Assembly: GCA_049320885.1 (NCBI GenBank)
Contig: JBMORA010000001.1
Location: forward strand, 274,622 to 338,621
Origin: Thermodesulfobacteriota bacterium
GTDB lineage: Bacteria > Desulfobacterota > Desulfobacteria > Desulfobacterales > SURF-7
Direction: 5' to 3'
Length of the DNA stretch: 64,000 bases
A program made the translations under genes and the position numbers. Under the pieces are notes generated by a model. It was not told the origin of the DNA, ran no database searches, and saw only the letters and a program-made list of their open reading frames with translations. Shown in pieces: positions 11,003-47,969 of the stretch (position 1 is its first letter; every line of letters begins with the position of its first letter).

Positions 11003-11077
11003 GGCGGCATAGCCAAGTGGTAAGGCATCGGTCTGCAAAACCGACACTCTCCGGTTCAAATCCGGATGCCGCCTCCA
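11003..11077 (+). tRNA. tRNA-Cys (GCA), canonical 7/5 fold
   Basis: GGCGGCA/TGCCGCC acceptor stem, U73, anticodon arm TCGGT-CTGCAAA-ACCGA, encoded CCA. Confidence 0.98.
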
Positions 11078-36050: not shown

Positions 36051-39000
36051 TCACGCGCATTCGATCATCGCCATAATCTGAGATTCCTCGAAACCTTTTA
36101 ACCGCAATGCTCCGGAGCGGCAGGAAGCCACGCAGGCCCCGCAACCCTTGCAGAGCACCGGATTGATTTCCGCCCTGCCCGCAAAGGGGCCGTCCGTCCT
36201 CAGAGAGGGCGCGTTGTAGGGACAGACGGCCACACAAACCCCGCAGCCGCTGCAATCCATTGGCGCCGAATACGCCACGGTTCCGCTGGTGCGGATGGTT
36301 TTCTGGGCCAGCAACCGGGTGGCGCCGGAGGCGGCGGCCTGGGCCTGGGCGATGGATTCGTCAATGGGCTTGGGATAATGGGCCAGTCCGCACAGGAACA
36401 CGCCGTCGGTGGCGAAATTGGAGGGGGCCAGTTTGACGTGGGCTTCGGCGAAAAAACCGTCGGCGTTCATGGGTACCTTGAAGAAGCGGGCCAGTTGTTC
36501 GTCCCTGTACGGCAAAACCGCCGCGGCCAGGGTCAGCAGATCGGCCTCGATCCGCAGCGGTTTTTTCAGGATATGATCCAGGACTTCGATTTCCAGACCG
36601 TTTTCCGCAACCCGCACCCCGGGTTTGTTCTCAAGGCTGAAACGGATGAAAACAACGCCTATTTCCCGGGCCGTCTGATACAATTTCTCGCGCTCGCCGT
36701 AGGTGCGGATATCCCGGTACAACACGAAAACGTTCATCTCCGGATTCATTTCCTTCAGATGGATCGCCGCGGCCACGCTGTGGGTGCAACAGATCCGCGA
36801 GCAGTATGGTCTTTGCGGCTCCCGGGAACCCACGCATTGAATAAAGACCGCCGTCTTCACCTCCCGGAGGGCTGGATCGCGTCGGCGCAGCCTTTCATCC
36901 AATTCCAGGGCGGTGAGCACCCGCGGGTCGTCGCCATAGCCGTATTCCGCGGGAAGGCTTTCCGTGGCGCCGGTGGCGATGACGGCCACTCCGTGGCGAA
37001 TGGTTTCCGTCCTGCCCGCCTGGTCCACGGTGGTGTCGAAATTGCCCACGAATCCGTCCACCCGGGTCAATCGGGCTTTCAGCAGGACGCGGATGCCGGG
37101 ATGGTTGGTGACGGCGATGCGGATCGCATCCAGACCGTCCTGAACCGATTCCCCCCAGGCGGTCTGGTACAACCGGTTGGCCTGCCCCCCCAGTTGACCT
37201 TCCCGTTCGATCAAGTGAACCGGATACCCCTGATCCGCCAAGGCCAACGCGGCGCTCATGCCGGAGAGTCCACCGCCGATCACCAGCGCATTTGGGTCGA
37301 TTTCCAGCTGGGCCTCCTCCAACGCCTGGTATTGGGCGACCTTGGCCGCAGCCATGCGCACCAGGTCCTTGGCTTTTTCCGTGGCGGCCAGAGGATATTC
37401 CTTGTGCACCCAGGAGCCATGGTTGCGGATGTTGACCATTTCAAACAAGTATTTGTTCAGTCCGGCGTTCAGCAGGGTTTCCTGGAATAAGGGATCGTGT
37501 GTTCTGGGCGTACAGGCGGCCACCACGATACGGTTCAGGTTCTTTTCCTCGATCAGACGGCTGATGGCGTCCTGGGTGTCCTGGGAACAGGAATACATGT
37601 TGTCGCTGACGTATTCCACAAAGGGCAATCCGGCTGCGTAATCGCGCACCGCGGGCACGTCGATGACGCCGCCGATGTTGATGCCGCAATGACAGACAAA
37701 CACCCCGATGCGGGGCCGTTCACCGTAAATGGTACGCTCGGGCCGCGGGGTGCTGGCGCGGGTCAGGGCATAGCGGCTGCCGGAAAGCGAAATACCAGCC
37801 CGCATGGCGGCCGCTCCGGCCTCCACGACGGTCTGGGGGATGTCCTTTGGGCCCTGGAAAGCGCCGCACACATAAATCCCCGGCCGGGAAGTCGACACCG
37901 GATCGAAAGAAGTAGTCCGGCAAAATCCGGAATCCGTGAGGGATACCCCCAGCTTGCCCGCCAGGCCGCGGACATCTTCCTGAATTTCCATACCAACGGA
38001 CAGGACCACGATATCGAAAACCTCCCGGGTCCACTTGCCGGTTTGCTCATCCATGTAGTCCAACACCTGACCTTTTCCCTCGCCGGTTTCGGGAAAGACC
38101 GAATGGACCTTGCAGCGCACAAAGCGGATGCCGTATTTCTCCCGGGCCTCGTTGTAGCAACTTTCAAAACCCTTCCCGTGGGTACGCATGTCCATATAGA
38201 AAATGGCGCATTCCAGATCCGGTTCATGCTCCTTGGCGATGATGGCCTGTTTAATGGCGTACATGCAGCAGACCGAGGAGCAATGGCTGTTGTCGCAGGT
38301 ATTCAAATCGCGGGAACCCACGCATTGCAGCCAGGCGATACGTTTGGGCTCCGCATGGTCGGACAGGCGCACCACGTGGCCCTGGTTGGGCCCCGAAGCC
38401 GACAGCAGGCGTTCGAATTCGATGGAGGTGACCACATCCGGATTGTTGTCATAGGAATAGATCAGTTTCCCCGCGGGATCATAGGCCTTGAATCCGGGAG
38501 CCAGAATGATGGCCCCTACATTCAGGATGATATTCCGATCCTTGTCGTCATAGTTGATGGCTCCCGCCGGGCAGGCCTTTTCACAGTTGCCGCATTTCCC
38601 CTTAGTCATGCGGATGCAATACCGCTCATCGATCGCATATTTTAATGGAACAGCCTGGGGATACTGGACATAAACGGCCTTGCGTTTGATCAGGCCCCGG
38701 TTGTACTCGTCGACGACTTTTTTGGGGCATTTTTCGGCGCAGGCGCCGCAGGCGATGCATTTTTCCATGTCCACGTAGCGGGCCTTGCGGAAGACATCCA
38801 CCTGAAAATTTCCCTGCTCGCCGCTGACATCCTTGATTTCCGCCAGGGTGATCAGTTCGATGTTCATATGCCGGCCCACCTCCACCAGCTTGGGGGACAT
38901 GATGCACATGGAACAGTCATTGGTGGGGAAGGTTTTGTCCAACTGGGACATGACGCCGCCGATGGAAGCGTTCTTCTCGATCATGTAGACATAATAACCG

Positions 39001-39083
39001 GAATTGGCCAGATCCAGGGCTGCCTGGATACCGCCGATGCCGCCGCCGGCGATCAGGACTGCTCCCGTGGTTTGCTTTGACAT
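36051..39083 (-). CDS. hdrA: Heterodisulfide reductase subunit A family protein (about 1010 aa)
   Basis: LDKTFPTNDCSMC, QCVGSR twice, CSSVCCMY, VFVCHCG, ferredoxin motifs. Confidence 0.93.
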   Translation of the reverse strand: MSKQTTGAVLIAGGGIGGIQAALDLANSGYYVYMIEKNASIGGVMSQLDKTFPTNDCSMCIMSPKLVEVGRHMNIELITLAEIKDVSGEQGNFQVDVFRKARYVDMEKCIACGACAEKCPKKVVDEYNRGLIKRKAVYVQYPQAVPLKYAIDERYCIRMTKGKCGNCEKACPAGAINYDDKDRNIILNVGAIILAPGFKAYDPAGKLIYSYDNNPDVVTSIEFERLLSASGPNQGHVVRLSDHAEPKRIAWLQCVGSRDLNTCDNSHCSSVCCMYAIKQAIIAKEHEPDLECAIFYMDMRTHGKGFESCYNEAREKYGIRFVRCKVHSVFPETGEGKGQVLDYMDEQTGKWTREVFDIVVLSVGMEIQEDVRGLAGKLGVSLTDSGFCRTTSFDPVSTSRPGIYVCGAFQGPKDIPQTVVEAGAAAMRAGISLSGSRYALTRASTPRPERTIYGERPRIGVFVCHCGINIGGVIDVPAVRDYAAGLPFVEYVSDNMYSCSQDTQDAISRLIEEKNLNRIVVAACTPRTHDPLFQETLLNAGLNKYLFEMVNIRNHGSWVHKEYPLAATEKAKDLVRMAAAKVAQYQALEEAQLEIDPNALVIGGGLSGMSAALALADQGYPVHLIEREGQLGGQANRLYQTAWGESVQDGLDAIRIAVTNHPGIRVLLKARLTRVDGFVGNFDTTVDQAGRTETIRHGVAVIATGATESLPAEYGYGDDPRVLTALELDERLRRRDPALREVKTAVFIQCVGSREPQRPYCSRICCTHSVAAAIHLKEMNPEMNVFVLYRDIRTYGEREKLYQTAREIGVVFIRFSLENKPGVRVAENGLEIEVLDHILKKPLRIEADLLTLAAAVLPYRDEQLARFFKVPMNADGFFAEAHVKLAPSNFATDGVFLCGLAHYPKPIDESIAQAQAAASGATRLLAQKTIRTSGTVAYSAPMDCSGCGVCVAVCPYNAPSLRTDGPFAGRAEINPVLCKGCGACVASCRSGALRLKGFEESQIMAMIECA

Positions 39084-39159: not shown

Positions 39160-40467
39160 CTAGTATCCCGGCAGATTCACTTCCGCCAAATCCGGCCCAA
39201 GATAGGCGCGTTCGTTTTCACCCAGGATGCCCAGGGAAAGCGCGATGATCGTCCACAAATGCACCGTCCGATACGCTCCCTTGCCGAAATGATGCCCCAA
39301 CTCATCAATCTGGGCATGACAGTTATGGCACGGCGTAATGACATAGGGTACGCCGGTGCGGCTGATCTGCTCATGTTTCAGTCTCCCGTAATGCAGCCGG
39401 GCATCCTTGAAACCGGACTGAAGATAGCCGCCGCCACCGCCGCAACAGTAATTGTTGGATTTGTTCGGCCACATCTCGATGACATTCTCCGCCCCCACGC
39501 AGGCTGCCGTGACAAAGCGCAGTTCATCGGCCAGGGTGTCGCCGAAGCCCTTGCGCACCTGGTTGCAGGGATCCTGAACGGTGAATTTCACCTGCAGTTC
39601 CTTGTTCCAGGAAGCATCGACCTTGAGCTTTCCCTCCCGGATCCATTTGGCGTAGTAGGAAACCATGGGGGCGATCTCCAGGTCGGTTTCGATCTTGTGC
39701 CGCTTCTGCCCCATCCAGACCGAAAACGTGGAATGACCGCATTCGGTGTTCAGGTATACCTTGCACCCTAAATTCATGGCCTGTTTCAGGGTCTTTTCCG
39801 TGATGGTCTTCCAGCCCTCGTCATCGGCCAGGAACATGCAATAGTTCTCGCCGCCCCAGCCGGTGCAGCTGTAAGTCCAATCCGCGCCGGAAAGGTGCAG
39901 GATCTTCCAAAGGGGCGCCATTTCCTCGGGTTCGGTGACCGGTTCCCGAGAATTCTGACTCAAAAAGAAATGCGCTCCCTGCTTGTCGATGGGTGCTTCC
40001 AGGTTTTCCCAGCCCGGCTGGTTGGTCCGGACTTCCTCCAGCATATCCTCCACCACAAACCGGAAATCCTCCTCCGGGGTCCCCATGGCGCTGCAGCTGT
40101 CGTTCTTCAGGGCCATGTCGCAGGACCCCAGAATCCCCTTGGGCCGTTCTTCCCGGGGCCACAATTTGCGGCCCTCGAACACCATGGCGGCGATATCGAT
40201 GTTCATCGGACAGACATAACTGCAACGCTTGCACATGCTGCACAGCCAGACCCAGGGATGTTTGGTCAGTTCCCGGTCCATTCCCAACGCCACCATGCGG
40301 ACGAATTTGCGCGGGTCCATGTCTTCCAGACCGGAGGCTGGGCAGCCCGATGCGCAAGCGCCGCAGGTCAAACATAAATTCAGATTGGCGCCCTTGGGCA
40401 ATATGCTCAACAGCTTGTTTTTGAATTGCGGTTTCCAGTCTTTTTGAATCACGATCGGATCATTCAT
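39160..40467 (-). CDS. HdrD-like (HdrC-type 4Fe-4S plus CCG domain) Fe-S protein
   Basis: CLTCGACASGCP, CSMCKRCSYVCP, NTECGH, QDPCN, YCCGGGGG, PCHNC. Confidence 0.88.
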   Translation of the reverse strand: MNDPIVIQKDWKPQFKNKLLSILPKGANLNLCLTCGACASGCPASGLEDMDPRKFVRMVALGMDRELTKHPWVWLCSMCKRCSYVCPMNIDIAAMVFEGRKLWPREERPKGILGSCDMALKNDSCSAMGTPEEDFRFVVEDMLEEVRTNQPGWENLEAPIDKQGAHFFLSQNSREPVTEPEEMAPLWKILHLSGADWTYSCTGWGGENYCMFLADDEGWKTITEKTLKQAMNLGCKVYLNTECGHSTFSVWMGQKRHKIETDLEIAPMVSYYAKWIREGKLKVDASWNKELQVKFTVQDPCNQVRKGFGDTLADELRFVTAACVGAENVIEMWPNKSNNYCCGGGGGYLQSGFKDARLHYGRLKHEQISRTGVPYVITPCHNCHAQIDELGHHFGKGAYRTVHLWTIIALSLGILGENERAYLGPDLAEVNLPGY

Positions 40468-40664
40468 CCTGCTTTCCTTTCCCATATCGAAATAAATCCT
40501 CACCGGTATCCTGGAGCATCCATGAAGGACATGTTCCGGAGACCGATCTCTTGGCGTAAACGACGGGCGCGGCAGCGCTGAAAAAATGCCGAATGGTAAC
40601 AGCCAGTCTGAATCACCGAATGAAAAAAAGGAAACGCAGGAAAACGGAATCGATCTTCAGGCCG

Positions 40665-40736
40665 CTACTTCACCACCTGCCGAACCCGGGCAGGCACGCT
40701 GCAACACGCTCAAGTAAAGCCTGTAAACCGATGCAT
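40665..40736 (-). promoter_or_regulatory. Putative Sec-containing leader peptide MHRFTGFT(U)ACCSVPARVRQVVK with SECIS-like hairpin, upstream of the hdr operon
   Basis: GGGAG RBS (40746-40742), ATG at 40736, in-frame TGA at 40712-40710, hairpin CCTGCC-CGGGTTC-GGCAGG (40694-40676) 15 nt after the TGA, TAG at 40667-40665; homologous to the leader at 40969. Confidence 0.75.
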
Positions 40737-40830
40737 GGAAACTCCCGAAAGGACTTGCCGTACCCACTCCATGCGGCAATGCGCCGCACAGGCAATGGAA
40801 CGGATGGATTCACGCAATAAATTCCGGGTC

Positions 40831-40860
40831 GTCATAGCATGAAATCCGGCGGCGTATCAA
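40831..40860 (-). promoter_or_regulatory. Possible sigma70 promoter for the hdr leader/operon
   Basis: Minus strand TTGATA-N18-TATGAC with an extended TG; the -10 is imperfect. Confidence 0.35.
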
Positions 40861-40968
40861 ATCGATAGTTTCAATGCATATGTTTTTCCGGATTGGAATT
40901 ATCAATTTGACCATTTCCGGATATCCATAATAAGAAGCATGACCATCGAATCGAAGCAGGAGCTGTCC

Positions 40969-41044
40969 ATGCAGACATTTTTCGGCTTTACCTGAGGGTT
41001 GTTGGAAACTGCGCCGAGTTGCGGCGCTGGGGTACGGCTGAAAA
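40969..41044 (+). promoter_or_regulatory. Putative Sec-containing leader peptide MQTFFGFT(U)GLLET... with SECIS-like hairpin, upstream of selC*-selB*
   Basis: AGGAG RBS (40958-40962), ATG at 40969, in-frame TGA at 40993-40995, hairpin GCGCCG-AGTTG-CGGCGC (41011-41027) 15 nt after the TGA; the read-through frame stays open to 41286. Confidence 0.75.
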
Positions 41045-41108
41045 TCACCATCGAATCGATTGTTCCCGGTTTTTTCCGGCGCCGGCGCCCCATGCAAGAA
41101 CAGATGAC

Positions 41109-41200
41109 AGGGGCAATGGTGCTGGGCACCCCGCGGTCTTCAAAACCGTCGGCCTCGCCTGAAAATCGAGGAGGAGGTTCGATTCCCCTTGCCCCTTCCA
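41109..41200 (+). tRNA. selC*: selC*-type tRNA with UCA anticodon (tRNA-Sec-like 8/4 fold, probably Cys-accepting)
   Basis: 8-bp acceptor AGGGGCAA/TTGCCCCT, discriminator T41197 then CCA, D arm GGTGC/GCACC, anticodon arm GCGGT-CTTCAAA-ACCGT, long variable arm CCTCG/CGAGG, 4-bp T stem GG(A)GG/CCCC with a bulged A. Confidence 0.9.
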
Positions 41201-41225: not shown

Positions 41226-43151
41226 ATGGACAGATATTATACCATCGGTGTGGCCGGCCATGTGGACCACGGCAAGACTTCCCTGATTCGCTGCCTGACG
41301 GGTATCGATACGGACCGCCGGACGGATGAAAAACTCCGCGGCATCTCCATCGATGCGGGGATCGCGCCGCTGGATATGCCCGACGGACACCGTATCGCCC
41401 TGGTGGATGTGCCCGGGCATACGGATTACCTGAAAAACACCGTGCGCGGACTCCATGCCGTCGACAGCGCGGTTCTGGTGGTGGCCGCCGATGACGGCAT
41501 CATGCCCCAGACAGTGGAGCATCTGGAAATTTTACGCTTTTTCAAGGTCAGCAAGGGGTTCGTAGTATTGAGCAAGACCGATCTCGTGGATCCGGAAACC
41601 AGGGAAATAGCCATGCTGGAAATCGAGGATGCCGTGAAGGGGACTTTTCTAGAGGGCTGCCCCATCGTCCCCTTCTCTGCTGTCCAAGGCGCAGGCAGGG
41701 AGGAAGTCCTGCAGCAGATCATCCAAACCACCGATGACGAAAAACGAACCGTGACGAAAGATTTTTTCCGGATGTGGATCGATCAAGTGCGGATCCGCAA
41801 GGGATTCGGAACCGTAGTCAGCGGGACAATCCTGTCCGGCAGCCTTCGCAAGGACGACGCGGTTCAACTGTTGCCGGCCGGAACCGTCGTCCGGGCGCGG
41901 ACCATCGAATCCCACGGCCGCAGCATCGAACAGGCCTGTCCGGGACAGCGCGTGGGCGTTAATCTGCACAAAATACCGGCAACCGATGTCGTCAGGGGAA
42001 TGGCCCTGTCGCAACCGGACGCCATCATTCCAAGCTATCTGCTGAATGCGGATCTCCGACTTCTCGGCAACACCGGGAAAAATCTGAAAAGCCGACAACG
42101 GGTGAAACTGCACATCGGCGCTTCCGTCACCAGCGCCATGATCGTTCTCATGGATGCGAAGGAACTGACGCCGGGCGGACAATGCCTGGCCCAGTTGCGC
42201 CTGCTGAAACCGGCGGCCGCAAGGTCACGCGATCCTTTTGTAGTCACCCCGCTGAACCGCAATACCGTCATCGGCGGCGGAACCGTTCTGGAACCGACAC
42301 AGGAGAAATACCGTAGCGCCAAATCGGCCGGAATCGTTCCGATGCTGTCGGCTCTCCGGAGCGGCAATCTTGCCGGATATTTGGATTTGTTTTTCGGCCA
42401 TCAGCAAACCCACGCTTTCTCCGCCCGGGAACTCACGGAAAAGACCGGATGGCCTCTCCCGCAACTCGAAGCGGAAATCAACGCCCGGGTGCGGAAAGGG
42501 GACCTGATTTATATCAAGGGGCTGGGCGCCCTTGCAAAAACGGAGTTCCGCCGACTCAAGGACGAAGTCCTTTTCTCCGTCGAAAGGCTTTTCCAGAGCA
42601 ACGCCGCCAAAAAAATCATCCATGAAAAGGAGATCGCCCATGATTTGTCCGCTCTTCTGGAAGAAAAACTGCTGCAAGGCATCATCGAGGAATGGTGTCA
42701 TGATGAAAAACTGACAAAAACCGGGGGCGGATTCCTCAACCCGTATTACAATGAGGCTCCGGCCACGGTTCTTTCCCCTCAGATGGAACAAACGATCCGG
42801 CTGCTCCTGGAGCATGCCCGGTCCAGCGGAATGTCGCCTTTCAGCGCCGACAGTTTCTGGAAGGCTCACGAAAAAAAACTGAACAAGCCGAGAGTCCAGC
42901 AGGCCATGGAATACCTGGCCGAGCGGAAACAGTTGATCCGCCTGCGGGACAACCGTTTTCTCGATCCGGAATCCCTGGAAATCATCAAGGAACGGGTCAG
43001 AAGCGCCATCCAGGCCAAAGGCTTCATCACCTTATCAGACAGCAGGGAAATATTAGGATACGGCCGCTGGGGCGGGGCGCCGGTATTGGACCATCTGGAT
43101 AAAATCGGCTTCACCGTCCGGATCGGGGACAAACGCCTGATCCGGCAATGA
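41226..43151 (+). CDS. selB: SelB-family elongation factor, divergent paralog (SelB*)
   Basis: GHVDHGKT, DVPGH, VAADDGIMPQT, KGFGTVVSG motifs and C-terminal winged-helix region; 641 aa; starts 25 nt after the UCA tRNA. Confidence 0.92.
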   Translation: MDRYYTIGVAGHVDHGKTSLIRCLTGIDTDRRTDEKLRGISIDAGIAPLDMPDGHRIALVDVPGHTDYLKNTVRGLHAVDSAVLVVAADDGIMPQTVEHLEILRFFKVSKGFVVLSKTDLVDPETREIAMLEIEDAVKGTFLEGCPIVPFSAVQGAGREEVLQQIIQTTDDEKRTVTKDFFRMWIDQVRIRKGFGTVVSGTILSGSLRKDDAVQLLPAGTVVRARTIESHGRSIEQACPGQRVGVNLHKIPATDVVRGMALSQPDAIIPSYLLNADLRLLGNTGKNLKSRQRVKLHIGASVTSAMIVLMDAKELTPGGQCLAQLRLLKPAAARSRDPFVVTPLNRNTVIGGGTVLEPTQEKYRSAKSAGIVPMLSALRSGNLAGYLDLFFGHQQTHAFSARELTEKTGWPLPQLEAEINARVRKGDLIYIKGLGALAKTEFRRLKDEVLFSVERLFQSNAAKKIIHEKEIAHDLSALLEEKLLQGIIEEWCHDEKLTKTGGGFLNPYYNEAPATVLSPQMEQTIRLLLEHARSSGMSPFSADSFWKAHEKKLNKPRVQQAMEYLAERKQLIRLRDNRFLDPESLEIIKERVRSAIQAKGFITLSDSREILGYGRWGGAPVLDHLDKIGFTVRIGDKRLIRQ

Positions 43152-43202: not shown

Positions 43203-44480
43203 ATGAGCGAAGAGTATACAAGCATGTGGCAATCGTTGGGACTCGACCTGGCTGCCCATGACGCCTTGCTGAATGTCCTGGGGCAGGCCTACCAGGACAT
43301 TTACCTGGCCCAGAAGAACCGGCCCGATGGAATGAAGTACTTCGACTTCGTGATGAGCGAAGTCCATGGCCTGCGCATCAAGGAACTGCTGGAGGAGAAA
43401 GCGGCTGGCAGAAAAATCGTCGGCAGTTATTGCGTCTTCGTTCCGGAGGAAATCGTGCTGGCGGCCAACGCCACCCTGGTGGGCCTGTGCGCCGGAGCCG
43501 ATTTCGCCCTGGAGGAGGCGGAAAAACTGCTGCCGCGCAATACCTGTTCCCTGATCAAATCCACCTTCGGCTTCAAACTGGGCAAGGTCTGCCCCTATCT
43601 GGAATCCGCCGACATGGTGGTGGGGGAGAACACCTGCGACGGCAAAAAGAAAGCCTACGAAATTTTGGACACCCTCATTTCCAACTTGTATGTCATGGAT
43701 CTGCCCCAGGTGAAATCCGTCGCCGGACGCGAACTCCTGAAAACCGAATACTACCGATTCAAGGCAGCCCTGGAAAAACTGACGGGCGTTACCGTGGATA
43801 AGCAGGCCCTGGAAAAAGGTATCAAAACCGTCAACGAAAAACGCAAGGCTGTTCACCGCCTGAACCGGCTGCGCGCCGCCGACCCGGCCCCCATATCCGG
43901 CCTGGACGCCCTGTTGGTCAATCAGGTGTTTTTCTATGACAACCCGGCCCGCTTCACTTCCTCCGTGAACATGATCTGTGACGAACTGGAGGGCCGCATC
44001 CGGGAGAAGTCCGGCATTTCCTCCGGAAAGCGTCCCAGAATCCTGGTATCCGGCTGTCCCATGGCCGTGCCCAACTGGAAACTTCCCTGGATTGTGGAAA
44101 CCTCCGGCGCGGTCATCGTGGGTGAGGAATCCTGCGTGGGCGAACGCGGCAGCAGAAACCTGGTGAACGGGGACGGCACTACCCTGGATGATCTGATGGA
44201 AGCCGTCATCGACCGGTACTTCGCCATCGACTGCGCCGTGTTCACGCCCAATCAAAGCCGGCTCGATCATATCGTTGAAATGGCCGCCGCCTACAAGGCG
44301 GACGGCGTCATTCACTATGGCCTGCAATTTTGCCAACCCTATTTGATGGAGTCCCTGCCCGTTGAAAAAGCCTTGAAGGATAAAGGGATTCCGGTCCTGC
44401 GGGTGGAAACCGACTACGGCCCGGAAGACGCCGGTCAGCTCAAGACCCGGGTGGAGGCCTTCCTGGAGATGCTCAAATAA
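43203..44480 (+). CDS. 2-hydroxyacyl-CoA dehydratase D-component family protein, double-cubane cluster protein-like reductase
   Basis: GSYCVFVPEE, GLCAG, LPRNTC, ENTCDGKKK, SGCP, EESCVG, IDCAVF, QFCQPY, ETDY, TRVEAF. Confidence 0.85.
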   Translation: MSEEYTSMWQSLGLDLAAHDALLNVLGQAYQDIYLAQKNRPDGMKYFDFVMSEVHGLRIKELLEEKAAGRKIVGSYCVFVPEEIVLAANATLVGLCAGADFALEEAEKLLPRNTCSLIKSTFGFKLGKVCPYLESADMVVGENTCDGKKKAYEILDTLISNLYVMDLPQVKSVAGRELLKTEYYRFKAALEKLTGVTVDKQALEKGIKTVNEKRKAVHRLNRLRAADPAPISGLDALLVNQVFFYDNPARFTSSVNMICDELEGRIREKSGISSGKRPRILVSGCPMAVPNWKLPWIVETSGAVIVGEESCVGERGSRNLVNGDGTTLDDLMEAVIDRYFAIDCAVFTPNQSRLDHIVEMAAAYKADGVIHYGLQFCQPYLMESLPVEKALKDKGIPVLRVETDYGPEDAGQLKTRVEAFLEMLK

Positions 44481-44524: not shown

Positions 44525-45664
44525 CTACCCACGCAGTTCTTTCACCGCCCGGACGACCACCTCCGCTGCCCGGTCGATCTCGCCTACGGTGGTCATCCTC
44601 CCGGTGGTGAACCGCAGCGTCCCCTTGGCCCACGCCTCGGGGAGCTTCATGGCCGTCAGCACATGGGAGATTTCCACATGGTCCGAATGGCAGGCGGCCC
44701 CGGCGGATGCGGCGACCTCAAGACCGATCCGCTCCAGAATGCGGCTGGCCTCCAGCTGGAAGAAAGAAATGCTGGCGGTGTTGGGCAACCGCAGTTCCGG
44801 ATGGCCGTTGAACCGGATATCCGTGAGTTCCGTTCCTAGAATGCCCTCCAAACGATTCCGCATGGCTTGCATGTGGCCCGCGCCGCTTTCCATAGTGGCG
44901 GCGGCGAGTTCACAGGCCTTGCCGAGGCCCACGATGCCCATCACGTTTTCGGTCCCTGCCCGGCTTCCTCTTTCCTGTCCCGCTCCGTGACAGAAAACCT
45001 TCGGCTCCACCCCGTTACGGATATACAGGCCGCCGACTCCTTTGGGCGCATACAGTTTATGACCCGCGAAGGATAGCAGATCCACCCCCAACGCGTCTGC
45101 TTCCACCCGGATCTTTCCAAGGGATTGAGCCGCATCCGTATGCATCAGAACCCCGGCTTTGCGGGCCAGGGCGGCAATTTCCGCAACCGGCTGGATGGTT
45201 CCCACTTCGTTGTTGGCATGCATGATGGAAATCAGGATGGTGTCCGGAGTAATTGCCGCGGCCACATCGGATGGGGCTACCATTCCGGTTTCATCCACCG
45301 GCAGATAAGTGACCGAGAATCCAAGGCCTTCCATATACCTACAGGTTTCAAGCACCGCCGGATGCTCCACCAGACTGGTTATCAAATGCTTGCCGCGGGC
45401 GAAACGGTTGCCGGCGATGCTCTTGATGGCCTGATTAATGGATTCGGTGCCGCCGCTGGTGAAAATAATTTCTTCCGCGGTGCAATCGATCAAACCGGCC
45501 ACCTGCCGCCGGGCCGCCTCCACAGCCTGTTTGGGACGGATTCCATACCAATGGGAACTGGACGGGTTGCCGAATTCCGTTTCCAGATAAGGCCTCATGG
45601 CGGCGATGACTTCCGGCGCATGCGGCGTGGTCCCGTTGTAATCCAGATAAATGGGTTTGGTCAT
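44525..45664 (-). CDS. Group I cysteine desulfurase / selenocysteine lyase-like PLP enzyme
   Basis: YLDYNGTTP, FTSGGTES, HTDAAQ, AGHKLYAPKG and SAGAACHS motifs. Confidence 0.9.
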   Translation of the reverse strand: MTKPIYLDYNGTTPHAPEVIAAMRPYLETEFGNPSSSHWYGIRPKQAVEAARRQVAGLIDCTAEEIIFTSGGTESINQAIKSIAGNRFARGKHLITSLVEHPAVLETCRYMEGLGFSVTYLPVDETGMVAPSDVAAAITPDTILISIMHANNEVGTIQPVAEIAALARKAGVLMHTDAAQSLGKIRVEADALGVDLLSFAGHKLYAPKGVGGLYIRNGVEPKVFCHGAGQERGSRAGTENVMGIVGLGKACELAAATMESGAGHMQAMRNRLEGILGTELTDIRFNGHPELRLPNTASISFFQLEASRILERIGLEVAASAGAACHSDHVEISHVLTAMKLPEAWAKGTLRFTTGRMTTVGEIDRAAEVVVRAVKELRG

Positions 45665-45956
45665 GGGTTACCCTTTTCCAGCATGAAAACGCGGTCTACA
45701 AACTTGTAAATGTCCTCCACTTCTGCTTGCAGCGCCTCATCCGTCTTTCGTCAGGGAGATATCATAAAACATCGGCATTGTCTAATATCTCCAGAATGGT
45801 GGATGCCTATAGAATTCATGAATGAAGGTGCGATTTATAATTCATATTATCTATTTGTATATCCTTTCATTCCATGGTTTTATCTATTTTTCAGCCAAAT
45901 CGTCAAGCCGGCCGGGAGTTAGGAACGGATATCAACAATCAAGAAAAGGATTCGTC

Positions 45957-47969
45957 ATGAACAATTGCAGGGCAGAAGTTTTCAGGTTGTTTTTTCTAGT
46001 AGTAATCGCTGTATCGCTGATCACGGGATGCGGCAGTTCTTCGGACTCGACGGACGGTGGTAGTCCGGCGCCGGGGAACGACACGGGCAAGCCCACGGCA
46101 GCCCAGACCGGCGACCTGTCATTGTTTCCCAATGCCGATCTGCTGGCCTCGGCCACGGATCTGGTCACCGACGAAGGCGTGATGAAAAACATGGCTGAGT
46201 GGGTCATTGTCGATACTAGGTCCGCCGCCGACTATGCCGCGGGGCATATCCCGGGCGCCATCAACCTTCAATGGGATTCCTTTGCCGTCCGGGACGGCTC
46301 CACGCCCAAAGGCAGCCTGCTGCCCGTGGACAGCCTCGCGGCGGTCCTGGGAGCCGCGGGACTGACAGAGGACACCGCCGTGATTTTTTATGACGACACC
46401 CTGGCTTCCCGGGGTTCGGCCGGACGTTTATTCTGGATGCTGGAGTATCTCGGCAACACCCGTTGCAGAATCCTCAACGGCGGCTGGGACAAATGGGCCG
46501 CCGATGACCTCCCGACGGAAACCACCGTCAACACCCTTCCCGCCGCCGTATTCGTACCGGACGTCGATGCCTCCGTTCGGGCCGATAAAACCGGAATCGC
46601 CGCCAGACTCAATCATGACGATTTTGTCCTGGTGGACACCCGCACCGATGAGGAATTCACGGGCTGGCGCCTGTATGACGAAGCCCGCGAAGGGCATGTG
46701 AAAGGAGCGGTCCACCTGCCCTTCGCCTGGTGCTTCAACGCGGACAAATCGGTCCTGAGCCATGCGGCTCTGAAAACCCTGCTGGAATCGCGGGGTATCA
46801 CGGGCGACAAGGAAATCGCGGCCTATAGCACGGACGGTGTCCGCAGCGGGTTCCTGTATTTCCTGGGACGTCTGATGGGGTATGACGTCATCGCCAATTA
46901 CGACGCTTCCATCCGGGAATGGGCCGAAGGCGATGACACAACATACCCCATGGAAAAAATGGCAGGATATTCCGAGCTGGTCTATCCGGCGTGGGTCAAG
47001 GCCCTGATCGATTATCACGCCCCGGGCAGCGCCACCGAAGCACCGCCGGGATATCTCCATGATCGTGGTCATCGCCATATCATCTTCGAAACCCAGTGGG
47101 GCAGCTTCGAGGACATGGCCAACGGGTGGGCGGACGACGCTTATCTGAAAGGGCATATTCCCGGCGCCGTGCATTCCAATTCGGACACTTACGAAAACGG
47201 ATTCCCCCGCTGGTTTTTGCTGCCGGAAGACCAGTTGAAGCAGGCGCTGGGCAGCATGGGCGTCACCGCCGACGCCACGGTGGTGGTGTACAGCAACAAC
47301 CCCATTTTTGCCGCCCGCCTGTGGTGGATCTTGAAATACGCGGGGGTGCAGGACGTCCGATTGCTCAACGGCGGCTATGACGCCTGGGTTGCAGCCGGCT
47401 ACGAATCCGAAACCACCGTGAACGACTCCGCGGCGGTCACCTATGACGGTTCGGTTGTACCAGGTCTGATCGCCGCAACGGATTATGTTGCGGCCAATTA
47501 TAATACCGGCGGCGCCGTCCTGGCCGATGTGCGCACCTGGGCGGAATACATCGGTGAGACCAGCGGCTACAGCTATGTCGTCAACAAGGGCCGCATTCCG
47601 GGCGCTGTCTGGGCCTATAATGCGGACAATCCGGATCGGGAATACCTGGATGATGACGGCACCCTTCGCAGCTTCACCGAGGTAAGAGGCATGTGGGCAG
47701 GTCTGGGGATTACCGCCGCGGAGGGAAGTTCAACCTTTGACCGGGAGGTCATTTTCTACTGTGGGAGCGGTTACCGCTCCAGCCTGAGCTTTCTCCATGC
47801 CCATCTGATGGGATATCAAAATGTGCGGAACTATTCGGACGGCTGGGAGGGTTGGAGCACCACCTATACCGAATCCCCCGATTATGTCGCCGATCCGGCG
47901 GTTCCCGGCAGCACGGACGGCTGGCTCCAAGACCCCTCCGGAAGACCGGTTGCCAGCGGCGCTCCCTGA
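45957..47969 (+). CDS. Four-domain rhodanese/sulfurtransferase lipoprotein
   Basis: Lipobox LITGC; GHIPGA/GHVKGA/GRIPGA repeats, LNGG motifs, active-site loops YSTDGVRS and YCGSGYRS, YSDGW. Confidence 0.88.
   Translation: MNNCRAEVFRLFFLVVIAVSLITGCGSSSDSTDGGSPAPGNDTGKPTAAQTGDLSLFPNADLLASATDLVTDEGVMKNMAEWVIVDTRSAADYAAGHIPGAINLQWDSFAVRDGSTPKGSLLPVDSLAAVLGAAGLTEDTAVIFYDDTLASRGSAGRLFWMLEYLGNTRCRILNGGWDKWAADDLPTETTVNTLPAAVFVPDVDASVRADKTGIAARLNHDDFVLVDTRTDEEFTGWRLYDEAREGHVKGAVHLPFAWCFNADKSVLSHAALKTLLESRGITGDKEIAAYSTDGVRSGFLYFLGRLMGYDVIANYDASIREWAEGDDTTYPMEKMAGYSELVYPAWVKALIDYHAPGSATEAPPGYLHDRGHRHIIFETQWGSFEDMANGWADDAYLKGHIPGAVHSNSDTYENGFPRWFLLPEDQLKQALGSMGVTADATVVVYSNNPIFAARLWWILKYAGVQDVRLLNGGYDAWVAAGYESETTVNDSAAVTYDGSVVPGLIAATDYVAANYNTGGAVLADVRTWAEYIGETSGYSYVVNKGRIPGAVWAYNADNPDREYLDDDGTLRSFTEVRGMWAGLGITAAEGSSTFDREVIFYCGSGYRSSLSFLHAHLMGYQNVRNYSDGWEGWSTTYTESPDYVADPAVPGSTDGWLQDPSGRPVASGAP

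Follow-up and report, generated by a model that had tools for sequence, protein, structure and literature searches.

The selC*/selB* system has been in print since 2017, when selC* genes were described by Mukai et al. (2017; NAR 45:2776; PMC5389517) as encoding cysteine tRNAs (tRNA-Cys) that look like selenocysteine tRNA (tRNA-Sec), carry U73 and a GCA or UCA anticodon, and occur in genomes with a full selenocysteine (Sec) system. In Desulfobacterales and Syntrophobacterales these tRNAs show a modified 8/4 fold with a bulged A51a and selB* lies downstream, and in a subgroup selB* is followed by cysS*, encoding a cysteinyl-tRNA synthetase (CysRS*) with an altered CP1 motif and usually without the anticodon-binding domain; genomes with cysS*, of the Desulfococcus/Desulfonema type, always have A1:U72 together with UCA (PMC5389517). 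The tRNA of Desulfococcus biacutus suppressed the UGA codon of selD in Escherichia coli in combination with a CysRS variant built to mimic CysRS*, and this suppression needed the acceptor stem of 8 base pairs (bp) (PMC5389517). Desulfomonile tiedjei, Desulfotignum and Desulfosarcina sp. BuS5 contain selC*-selB* with the bulged 8/4 fold and no cysS*; there, ordinary CysRS is the presumed charging enzyme, and according to the legend of Figure S16 the CysRS of D. tiedjei charged its own selC* product in vitro (PMC5389517). Here, we describe a further example of this system, in the A1:U72/UCA form without cysS*, encoded in a 64,000-nucleotide (nt) stretch of the genome of a Thermodesulfobacteriota bacterium of the order Desulfobacterales. 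This whole stretch, called the window in the following, corresponds to G000:C1:274622-338621 of a genome rated 98% complete, and the gene in question is a 92-nt tRNA gene at 41109-41200 (+). Judged from its sequence and that of its neighbours, we consider it quite probable that the gene specifies a selC*-type tRNA-Cys (tRNA-ReC) which would be co-transcribed with selB*, charged with cysteine (Cys) by a CysRS and delivered by SelB* to UGA codons marked for Sec.

A tRNA-ReC of Desulfotomaculum nigrificans was reportedly described by Vargas-Rodriguez et al. in 2018 in RNA Biol 15:471. Papers citing that work state that tRNA-ReC decodes UGA codons marked by a selenocysteine insertion sequence (SECIS) as Cys through SelB (PMC13582414; PMC11415595), and one of them reports, second-hand, that it avoids EF-Tu and uses SelB (PMC11415595). 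It shares with the tRNA of the window the shape of tRNA-Sec, the tRNA-Cys assignment and U73 (PMC11415595; PMC13582414), whereas it is of the Clostridia type with another sequence and a GCA anticodon (table rows of PMC5389517). In a 2022 review the module is 'posited' to serve under selenium scarcity (PMC9437257).

The tRNA gene and its fold

The gene, AGGGGCAAUGGUGCUGGGCACCCCGCGGUCUUCAAAACCGUCGGCCUCGCCUGAAAAUCGAGGAGGAGGUUCGAUUCCCCUUGCCCCUUCCA, is recognized by ARAGORN, by the Rfam model RF01852, by covariation among its relatives and by its likeness to the D. biacutus tRNA. All its parts lie on the plus strand. The UCA anticodon is located at 41140-41142 (tca at position 32 in the ARAGORN output), and reading of the sequence gives an 8-bp acceptor stem with A1:U72, formed by AGGGGCAA (41109-41116) and UUGCCCCU (41189-41196). 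The D arm (41118-41130) is followed by the anticodon arm (41132-41151), by a long variable arm (41153-41171) with a 5-bp stem (41153-41157 with 41167-41171) and a 9-nt loop, and by the T arm (41173-41188), in which GG(A)GG at 41173-41177 pairs with CCCC at 41185-41188 leaving a bulged A at 41175. The discriminator U73 is found at 41197 and the encoded CCA at 41198-41200. All stems of this copy pair and the family consensus is matched outside the variable arm. The acceptor and T stems add up to 12 bp (8+4), as in ordinary tRNAs; with four T-stem pairs plus a bulge and a U discriminator the gene departs from the hallmarks of canonical tRNA-Sec, a 13-bp 8/5 branch and G73. It is present as a single copy in the whole genome.

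The genome encodes a separate canonical selC at G000:C12:2368-2461. Both genes share the UCA anticodon, the 8-bp acceptor stem, the long variable arm and a match to the Rfam tRNA-Sec model, but selC scores 75.4 bits compared with 52.3 bits for the gene of the window (gathering score 47, E 1.1e-7), and it has a 5-bp T stem, a 13-bp branch and G73 followed by CCA. The D arms differ likewise, with a 5-bp stem and a 3-nt loop in the window tRNA versus a 6-bp stem and a 4-nt loop in selC. The six sub-threshold matches to the tRNA-Sec model that were inspected are tRNA-Ser and tRNA-Leu genes. For comparison, the ordinary tRNA-Cys(GCA) gene at 11003-11077 (+), found by ARAGORN and by Rfam RF00005 with 68.6 bits, has G1:C72 and U73.

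Among the described tRNAs the D. biacutus selC* tRNA-Cys(UCA) (row KMRActS) is very close, as 88 of 92 bases are shared and the four differences all fall into the variable arm; the supplementary table 'selC-like tRNAsCys' holds no row identical to the window sequence (PMC5389517). The systems of D. biacutus and Desulfonema limicola agree with the one reported here in the 92-nt length, the 8/4 fold, the bulged A51a, A1:U72, U73, UCA and CCA, in the position of selB* directly downstream and in the complete selA/B/C/D set beside it; they differ in that the genome of the window has no cysS* anywhere and has a double-cubane reductase gene after selB* (PMC5389517). The tRNAs of D. tiedjei, Desulfotignum and strain BuS5 have G1:C72 and GCA or UCA, compared with A1:U72 in the window (PMC5389517). 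We infer the function of the window tRNA from its close, tested relative in D. biacutus. An earlier note on this DNA, made from the letters only, had proposed a selC*-type tRNA-Cys rather than a tRNA-Sec, and this interpretation is supported by the 88/92 likeness, by U73 in all 33 related copies and by the separate canonical selC. Sequence reading and ARAGORN reproduced the coordinates and features it had listed (UCA, 8-bp acceptor stem, A1:U72, U73, bulged 4-bp T stem, long variable arm), the Rfam match agrees with its statement that the tRNA-Cys at 11003-11077 bears U73, and its expectation that automated annotation would call the gene tRNA-Sec holds for ARAGORN (label 'tRNA-SeC', 92 nt, + strand) as well as for Rfam.

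The fold was assessed in an alignment of 26 distinct selC* copies in which pairs were counted under three folds. With the 8/4 cloverleaf 99.2% of the cells are paired and compensatory changes are found in 13 of 28 pairs, which is matched by 0 of 500 shuffles, and slid controls reach 45-63% paired. In a plain 7/5 fold without the bulge, all 26 rows contain an A.C mismatch. If the bulge is retained (7-bp acceptor stem, A64:U81), the 7/5 fold leaves 99.0% of the cells paired, and it is the minimum free energy structure of the single sequence (-36.9 kcal/mol, z-score -1.28 versus shuffles), so that thermodynamics leaves 8/4 versus 7/5 undecided. The sole row separating these two folds is L179, where G8:C81 retains the eighth acceptor pair and breaks A64:U81. 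By sequence alone the 8/4 fold is therefore weakly favoured, and its main support is the published experiment with the D. biacutus tRNA, since only L179 tells the folds apart (PMC5389517). The conservation and pairing of the window tRNA are far beyond chance, because the 92-nt gene recurs upstream of a SelB paralogue and because of the compensatory changes that none of the 500 shuffles matched.

The canonical apparatus, SelB* and their relatives

A complete canonical selA/selB/selC/selD set coexists with the selC* tRNA of the window. Besides selC, the genome contains one selA (599.9 bits) and a canonical selB on contig C27 (371.7 bits). The selD gene is located at G000:C1:345002-345928 (L034:6868-8031), approximately 6 kb past the window end and 29 kb downstream of the tRNA, and has an in-frame TGA within its active-site motif GAGUASK; its product, which makes the selenium donor, thus itself needs Sec, or Cys inserted at its TGA codon. 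The genome search for canonical selC, selA and selB that the earlier note had suggested found all three, so that the genome has a UCA tRNA besides that of the window, together with a complete Sec pathway. The same note had seen no selB in the window; this was mistaken, as the gene at 41226-43151 (+), which starts 25 nt after the CCA of the tRNA, encodes a SelB paralogue of 641 amino acids (aa), SelB* (TIGR00475, 286.6 bits, cut-off 242.25).

SelB* has the Pfam domains GTP_EFTU, GTP_EFTU_D2, Beta-barrel_SelB and, at the C-terminus, SelB-wing_3; the winged helix (PF09107, 45.9 bits) keeps its core motif with class-specific changes. Its reading frame is open, the G motifs of the GTPase are intact in the translation, and the protein shares only 32% identity with the canonical SelB encoded in the genome. 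A FastTree phylogeny places the SelB* sequences apart from 17 canonical SelB proteins and groups the window copy with those of two genomes of the same genus. When SelB* was used as a query over 101 genomes, SelB*-type matches showed 34-64% identity, and ordinary SelB showed approximately 25-34% over most of the query. A SelB*-type gene is present in 44 of 401 genomes of the order, distributed over 30 of 174 genera. A related-locus search with SelB* returned mostly ordinary SelB genes, with L035 as the sole SelB* locus, and 36 loci were examined altogether (L035, L115-L128, L165-L185).

In 32 of these 36 loci a tRNA(UCA) gene lies directly upstream of selB*; 31 of these genes are 92 nt long, and the one in L127 has 94 nt. 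No tRNA precedes selB* in L120, L128 and L182, and in L123 the contig ends within selB*. All 33 related tRNAs (two are found in L169) have U73, UCA and an encoded CCA, and the first pair is A1:U72 in 30 and G1:C72 in three (L121, L125, L126). Several arrangements stand out. Genome G002, of the same genus, has two SelB* genes on separate contigs (C57:5879-7789 and C83:72999-74906). In L169 (G376:C40) two identical selC* tRNAs are arranged in tandem, each before a SelB*, the second SelB* match spanning only residues 181-640. In L122 (G065:C1:1712996-1717894), whose tRNA matches a row of the published table in every letter, C replaces the innermost G of the T stem and a 52-aa CysRS fragment follows selB*; the legend of Figure S15 mentions a selC* pseudogene together with selB* and cysS* pseudogenes (PMC5389517).

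The context of the tRNA bears on a role as general opal suppressor, in which EF-Tu would carry Cys-tRNA(UCA) to any UGA, with low-level read-through and independently of SECIS and SelB*. Its 12-bp branch is that of ordinary tRNAs, the abstract of the 2017 paper states that the tRNA 'may function as opal suppressor', and in the supplement delivery of the D. biacutus tRNA is put down to 'EF-Tu recognition in E. coli' (PMC5389517). However, TGA terminates 54.5% of 2,668 open reading frames (ORFs) of at least 350 aa in the genome (a crude ORF set), and with such a stop codon usage efficient suppression would be costly; moreover, the tRNA is coupled to a full-length SelB paralogue with a retained winged helix for SECIS binding, a linkage seen in 32 of 36 loci, and the related tRNA-ReC is said, second-hand, to avoid EF-Tu (PMC11415595). 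A general suppressor therefore appears improbable to us. UGA remains the main stop codon and the genome-wide code is not reassigned, which argues for a restricted delivery of the tRNA(UCA). Such use of UGA as main stop codon beside selC*/selB* goes beyond the accessible parts of the published account (PMC5389517).

The aminoacyl pocket of SelB* was compared with that of canonical SelB. In Aquifex SelB this pocket comprises Phe45, Asp185, position 186 (E. coli Arg181), His229 and Arg241 (PMC4605307). These residues were mapped by alignment to 4ZU9 in 34 SelB* and 17 canonical SelB sequences of the order, the SelB* of L128 falling below the bit-score line and being binned by the script with the canonical set although its residues there, Val and Lys, are of the SelB* kind. 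The Phe, which stacks on the selenolate-binding Arg, is replaced by Ile or Val in 34/34 SelB* and is Phe in 17/17 canonical proteins. At the position of E. coli Arg181, Gln is found in 28 of the 34 SelB*, Arg in three and Gly, His or Lys in one each, compared with Arg in 17/17 canonical SelB, while the equivalents of Asp185, His229 and Arg241 are invariant in both classes alike. The loss of positive charge suggested by this comparison would suit a side chain that is less anionic, such as Cys, and the remodelling goes beyond the published account in its accessible parts. The two class-specific residues offer mutation targets for the discrimination of Cys versus Sec.

Probable charging and delivery of the tRNA

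Charging was addressed by searching the CysRS family (TIGR00435) in 34 SelB* genomes, i.e., 33 relatives and the genome of the window. The latter has two genes above the cut-off, a standard cysS at G000:C29:52489-53910 (571.6 bits) and a CysM-CysRS-like fusion; no CysRS-like match is present in the locus itself, and cysS* is absent from the genome. Of the 36 loci in relatives, 10 have an intact cysS* (HxGH; KMSKS, KMAKS or KVSKS) immediately after selB* (L165, L166, L170-L172, L175, L179, L181, L183, L185), and as a positive control the search recovered 10/10 of these adjacent genes with 383-483 bits. In the SelB* genomes without an adjacent cysS* it gave no third CysRS, save a partial extra CysRS-like match in G345. 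At least 16 genomes of at least eight families, including that of the window, are 93-100% complete and have the A1:U72 tRNA and selB* with no cysS* anywhere. The converse of the published rule thus fails, as A1:U72 with UCA occurs without cysS* in all of these (rule in PMC5389517).

The occurrence of cysS* follows the type of the housekeeping CysRS. In the cysS* genomes the housekeeping enzyme scores 421-453 bits (nine seen; none found in G400), and cysS* is found in 0 of the 21 SelB* genomes whose CysRS is of the standard type (545-590 bits), that of the window included; this link is drawn from related genomes, nine of them classed by bit score alone. The housekeeping CysRS of G063 and G065 is also low-scoring, and these sequences show a 10-residue insertion, HIGN and KMAKS. 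In an IQ-TREE phylogeny of 24 sequences CysRS* forms one clade (97/98) beside standard CysRS, and the divergent housekeeping pair is placed on a long branch. The restriction of cysS* to SelB* genomes with a divergent housekeeping CysRS goes beyond the published account as far as its accessible parts extend; its authors may have been aware of part of it, as the legend of Figure S14 colours the Desulfonema/Desulfococcus CysRS separately (PMC5389517).

The earlier note had also suggested looking for a cysS paralogue. The only one found lies outside the window, the 759-aa CysM-CysRS-like fusion at G000:C1:237844-240123 (L030:5845-8124), approximately 35 kb upstream of the window start and, on the contig shared with the tRNA, 76 kb upstream of the latter; as this fusion occurs irrespective of SelB*, it is not the published CysRS*. 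The protein joins a CysM-type cysteine synthase (PALP) to a full-length CysRS-like part with DALR and C-terminal domains, in which the Cys/His/Glu zinc ligands are kept, HIGE replaces HIGH and KMSKS is absent. In 13 SelB* genomes the fusion seemed to track the A1:U72 tRNAs, but it was rejected as the missing CysRS*, because 78 of 100 relatives, most of them lacking SelB*, have matches with 45-86% identity, and because of HIGE and the lack of KMSKS. The searched parts of a review on cysteine encoding do not contain it.

A selC*-type tRNA-Cys in this genome would most likely act as follows. The tRNA and selB*, 25 nt downstream, are most likely transcribed together. The tRNA would be charged with Cys by a CysRS, most likely the ordinary standard-type enzyme encoded at G000:C29:52489-53910, since the genome lacks the CysRS* of the Desulfococcus-type operon. 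SelB*, and not the canonical SelB, would then bind the Cys-tRNA and bring it to UGA codons marked for Sec, where Cys would replace Sec. A plausible use is under selenium scarcity; another is the synthesis of the first SelD molecules, as SelD is here a selenoprotein.

From the distribution of the synthetases we derive a wider, tentative proposal, which we regard as possible rather than probable. The standard CysRS of the order might charge the A1:U72/UCA selC* tRNA without CysRS*, and CysRS* might be this ancestral enzyme itself, retained in a trimmed form only in genomes whose housekeeping function passed to a foreign, divergent CysRS. With a SelB* lacking the Phe and Arg of the selenolate site, the module could then provide a route from UGA to Cys that is independent of selenium and might initiate production of Sec-containing SelD.

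Several observations weigh against these readings. The standard CysRS of the window genome has an ordinary CP1 motif (MEAGARIDVD) with no visible adaptation. A figure title states that the D. biacutus tRNA 'requires a dedicated CysRS' (PMC5389517), and according to a review ordinary CysRS cannot take A1:U72; because the genome of the window is without CysRS*, this link of A1:U72 to CysRS* in the literature weighs against charging by the standard enzyme. The partial extra CysRS-like match elsewhere in the genome of G345 and the classification by bit score count against the link between cysS* and CysRS type. The attribution of delivery to EF-Tu in the supplement weakens the case for a dependence on SelB* even for the D. 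biacutus tRNA (PMC5389517). The pocket argument extrapolates from two positions, and six of 34 SelB* are without Gln. Finally, the long variable arm could in principle attract seryl-tRNA synthetase (SerRS), as a long variable arm with G73 or U73 is compatible with serylation for allo-tRNAs (PMC5389517).

The last point belongs to an alternative in which the gene is a second true tRNA-Sec, charged by SerRS via the variable arm and converted by SelA, with SelB* as another factor specific for Sec that might serve only some mRNAs. The database labels of ARAGORN and Rfam agree with it, minor bacterial tRNA-Sec species with an 8/4 fold and the A51a bulge exist (PMC5389517), and SelB* retains Asp185, His229 and Arg241 in 34/34 sequences. 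We nevertheless hold this alternative to be quite improbable: U73 is found in 33/33 copies, compared with G73 in the genome's selC, the D arm is unlike that of selC, a dedicated intact CysRS lies beside selB* in 10 of 36 loci, the nearly identical tRNA of D. biacutus was functional with a variant of CysRS (PMC5389517), and the SelB* pocket is without Phe throughout and without Arg in 28/34. That the module is a decaying, non-functional relic left after loss of the synthetase is very improbable, since, although cysS* is missing from locus and genome, L122 is degenerate and matches the 'pseudogene' case of Figure S15 (PMC5389517), and selB* stands without a tRNA in L120, L128 and L182, the window tRNA pairs in every stem and follows the consensus except in the variable arm, the 641-aa reading frame of SelB* is uninterrupted and its GTPase motifs are preserved, and parallel decay does not predict the A1:U72 tRNA and selB* to be kept without cysS* in at least 16 genomes of at least eight families.

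Neighbouring genes and significance

Upstream of the tRNA two genes on the minus strand are transcribed away from it, an HdrA-like gene (36051-39083) and a TmcB/HdrD-like iron-sulfur gene (39160-40503), both assigned by NCBIfam. The TmcB/HdrD-like gene is separated from the tRNA by an intergenic region of 605 nt (40504-41108). An alignment of three loci, i.e., the window and two relatives of the same genus, shows conservation between 40900 and 41080, comprising a block ATCAATTTGAC near 40901-40911, a block TTTTTCGGCTTTACCTGAGG near 40979-40998 and a GC-rich hairpin, GCGCCG..CGGCGC, near 41013-41029. A consensus scan gave no sigma-70 site on the plus strand upstream of the tRNA; the one site detected, compared with 1.8 expected, lies on the minus strand. 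Two candidate selenoprotein genes nearby were rejected. The TmcB-like ORF can be extended through two TGA codons up to the tRNA, but the 200 added N-terminal residues are junk-like, and the read-through extension of a rhodanese gene is antisense to another gene.

Directly after selB*, where the published operon has cysS*, a double-cubane-cluster reductase of the HGD-D family is encoded at 43203-44480 (+; NF040772, 471.7 bits; PF06050). A double-cubane gene is also present downstream of selB* in L035, L116, L118, L119 and L123, and tblastn against the SelB* loci revealed TmcB-like genes in L035, L116, L117, L125 and L128 and HdrA-like genes in L120, L125 and L127. The selC*/selB* pair thus recurrently adjoins HdrA-like, TmcB/HdrD-like and double-cubane genes in several families, which may reflect common descent of the region or a connection in function. 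Farther downstream lie a NifS/IscS-type cysteine desulfurase at 44525-45664 (-), with weak likeness to the selenocysteine lyase SclA, and a multi-rhodanese protein of 715 aa at 45822-47969 (+), with a weak match to the selenite-reduction protein ExtH; a role of this pair in sulfur or selenium trafficking is possible.

For the interpretation of such genomes the assignment of the tRNA has direct consequences. When labelled as tRNA-Sec, it makes a genome seem to have selC and selB in duplicate, and the UGA codons of selenoprotein genes may be interpreted as Sec although part of the product could carry Cys. A hydrogenase survey from 2026 names Cys at UGA as a limit on predicting Sec from sequence (PMC13582414). 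A simple rule that A1:U72 requires CysRS* is contradicted by at least 16 fairly complete genomes that lack cysS* altogether, and by the confinement of cysS* to genomes whose housekeeping CysRS is divergent. The main addition of this locus to what is known of the selC*/selB* system is hence a sharper question, namely which enzyme charges the A1:U72 form of the tRNA.

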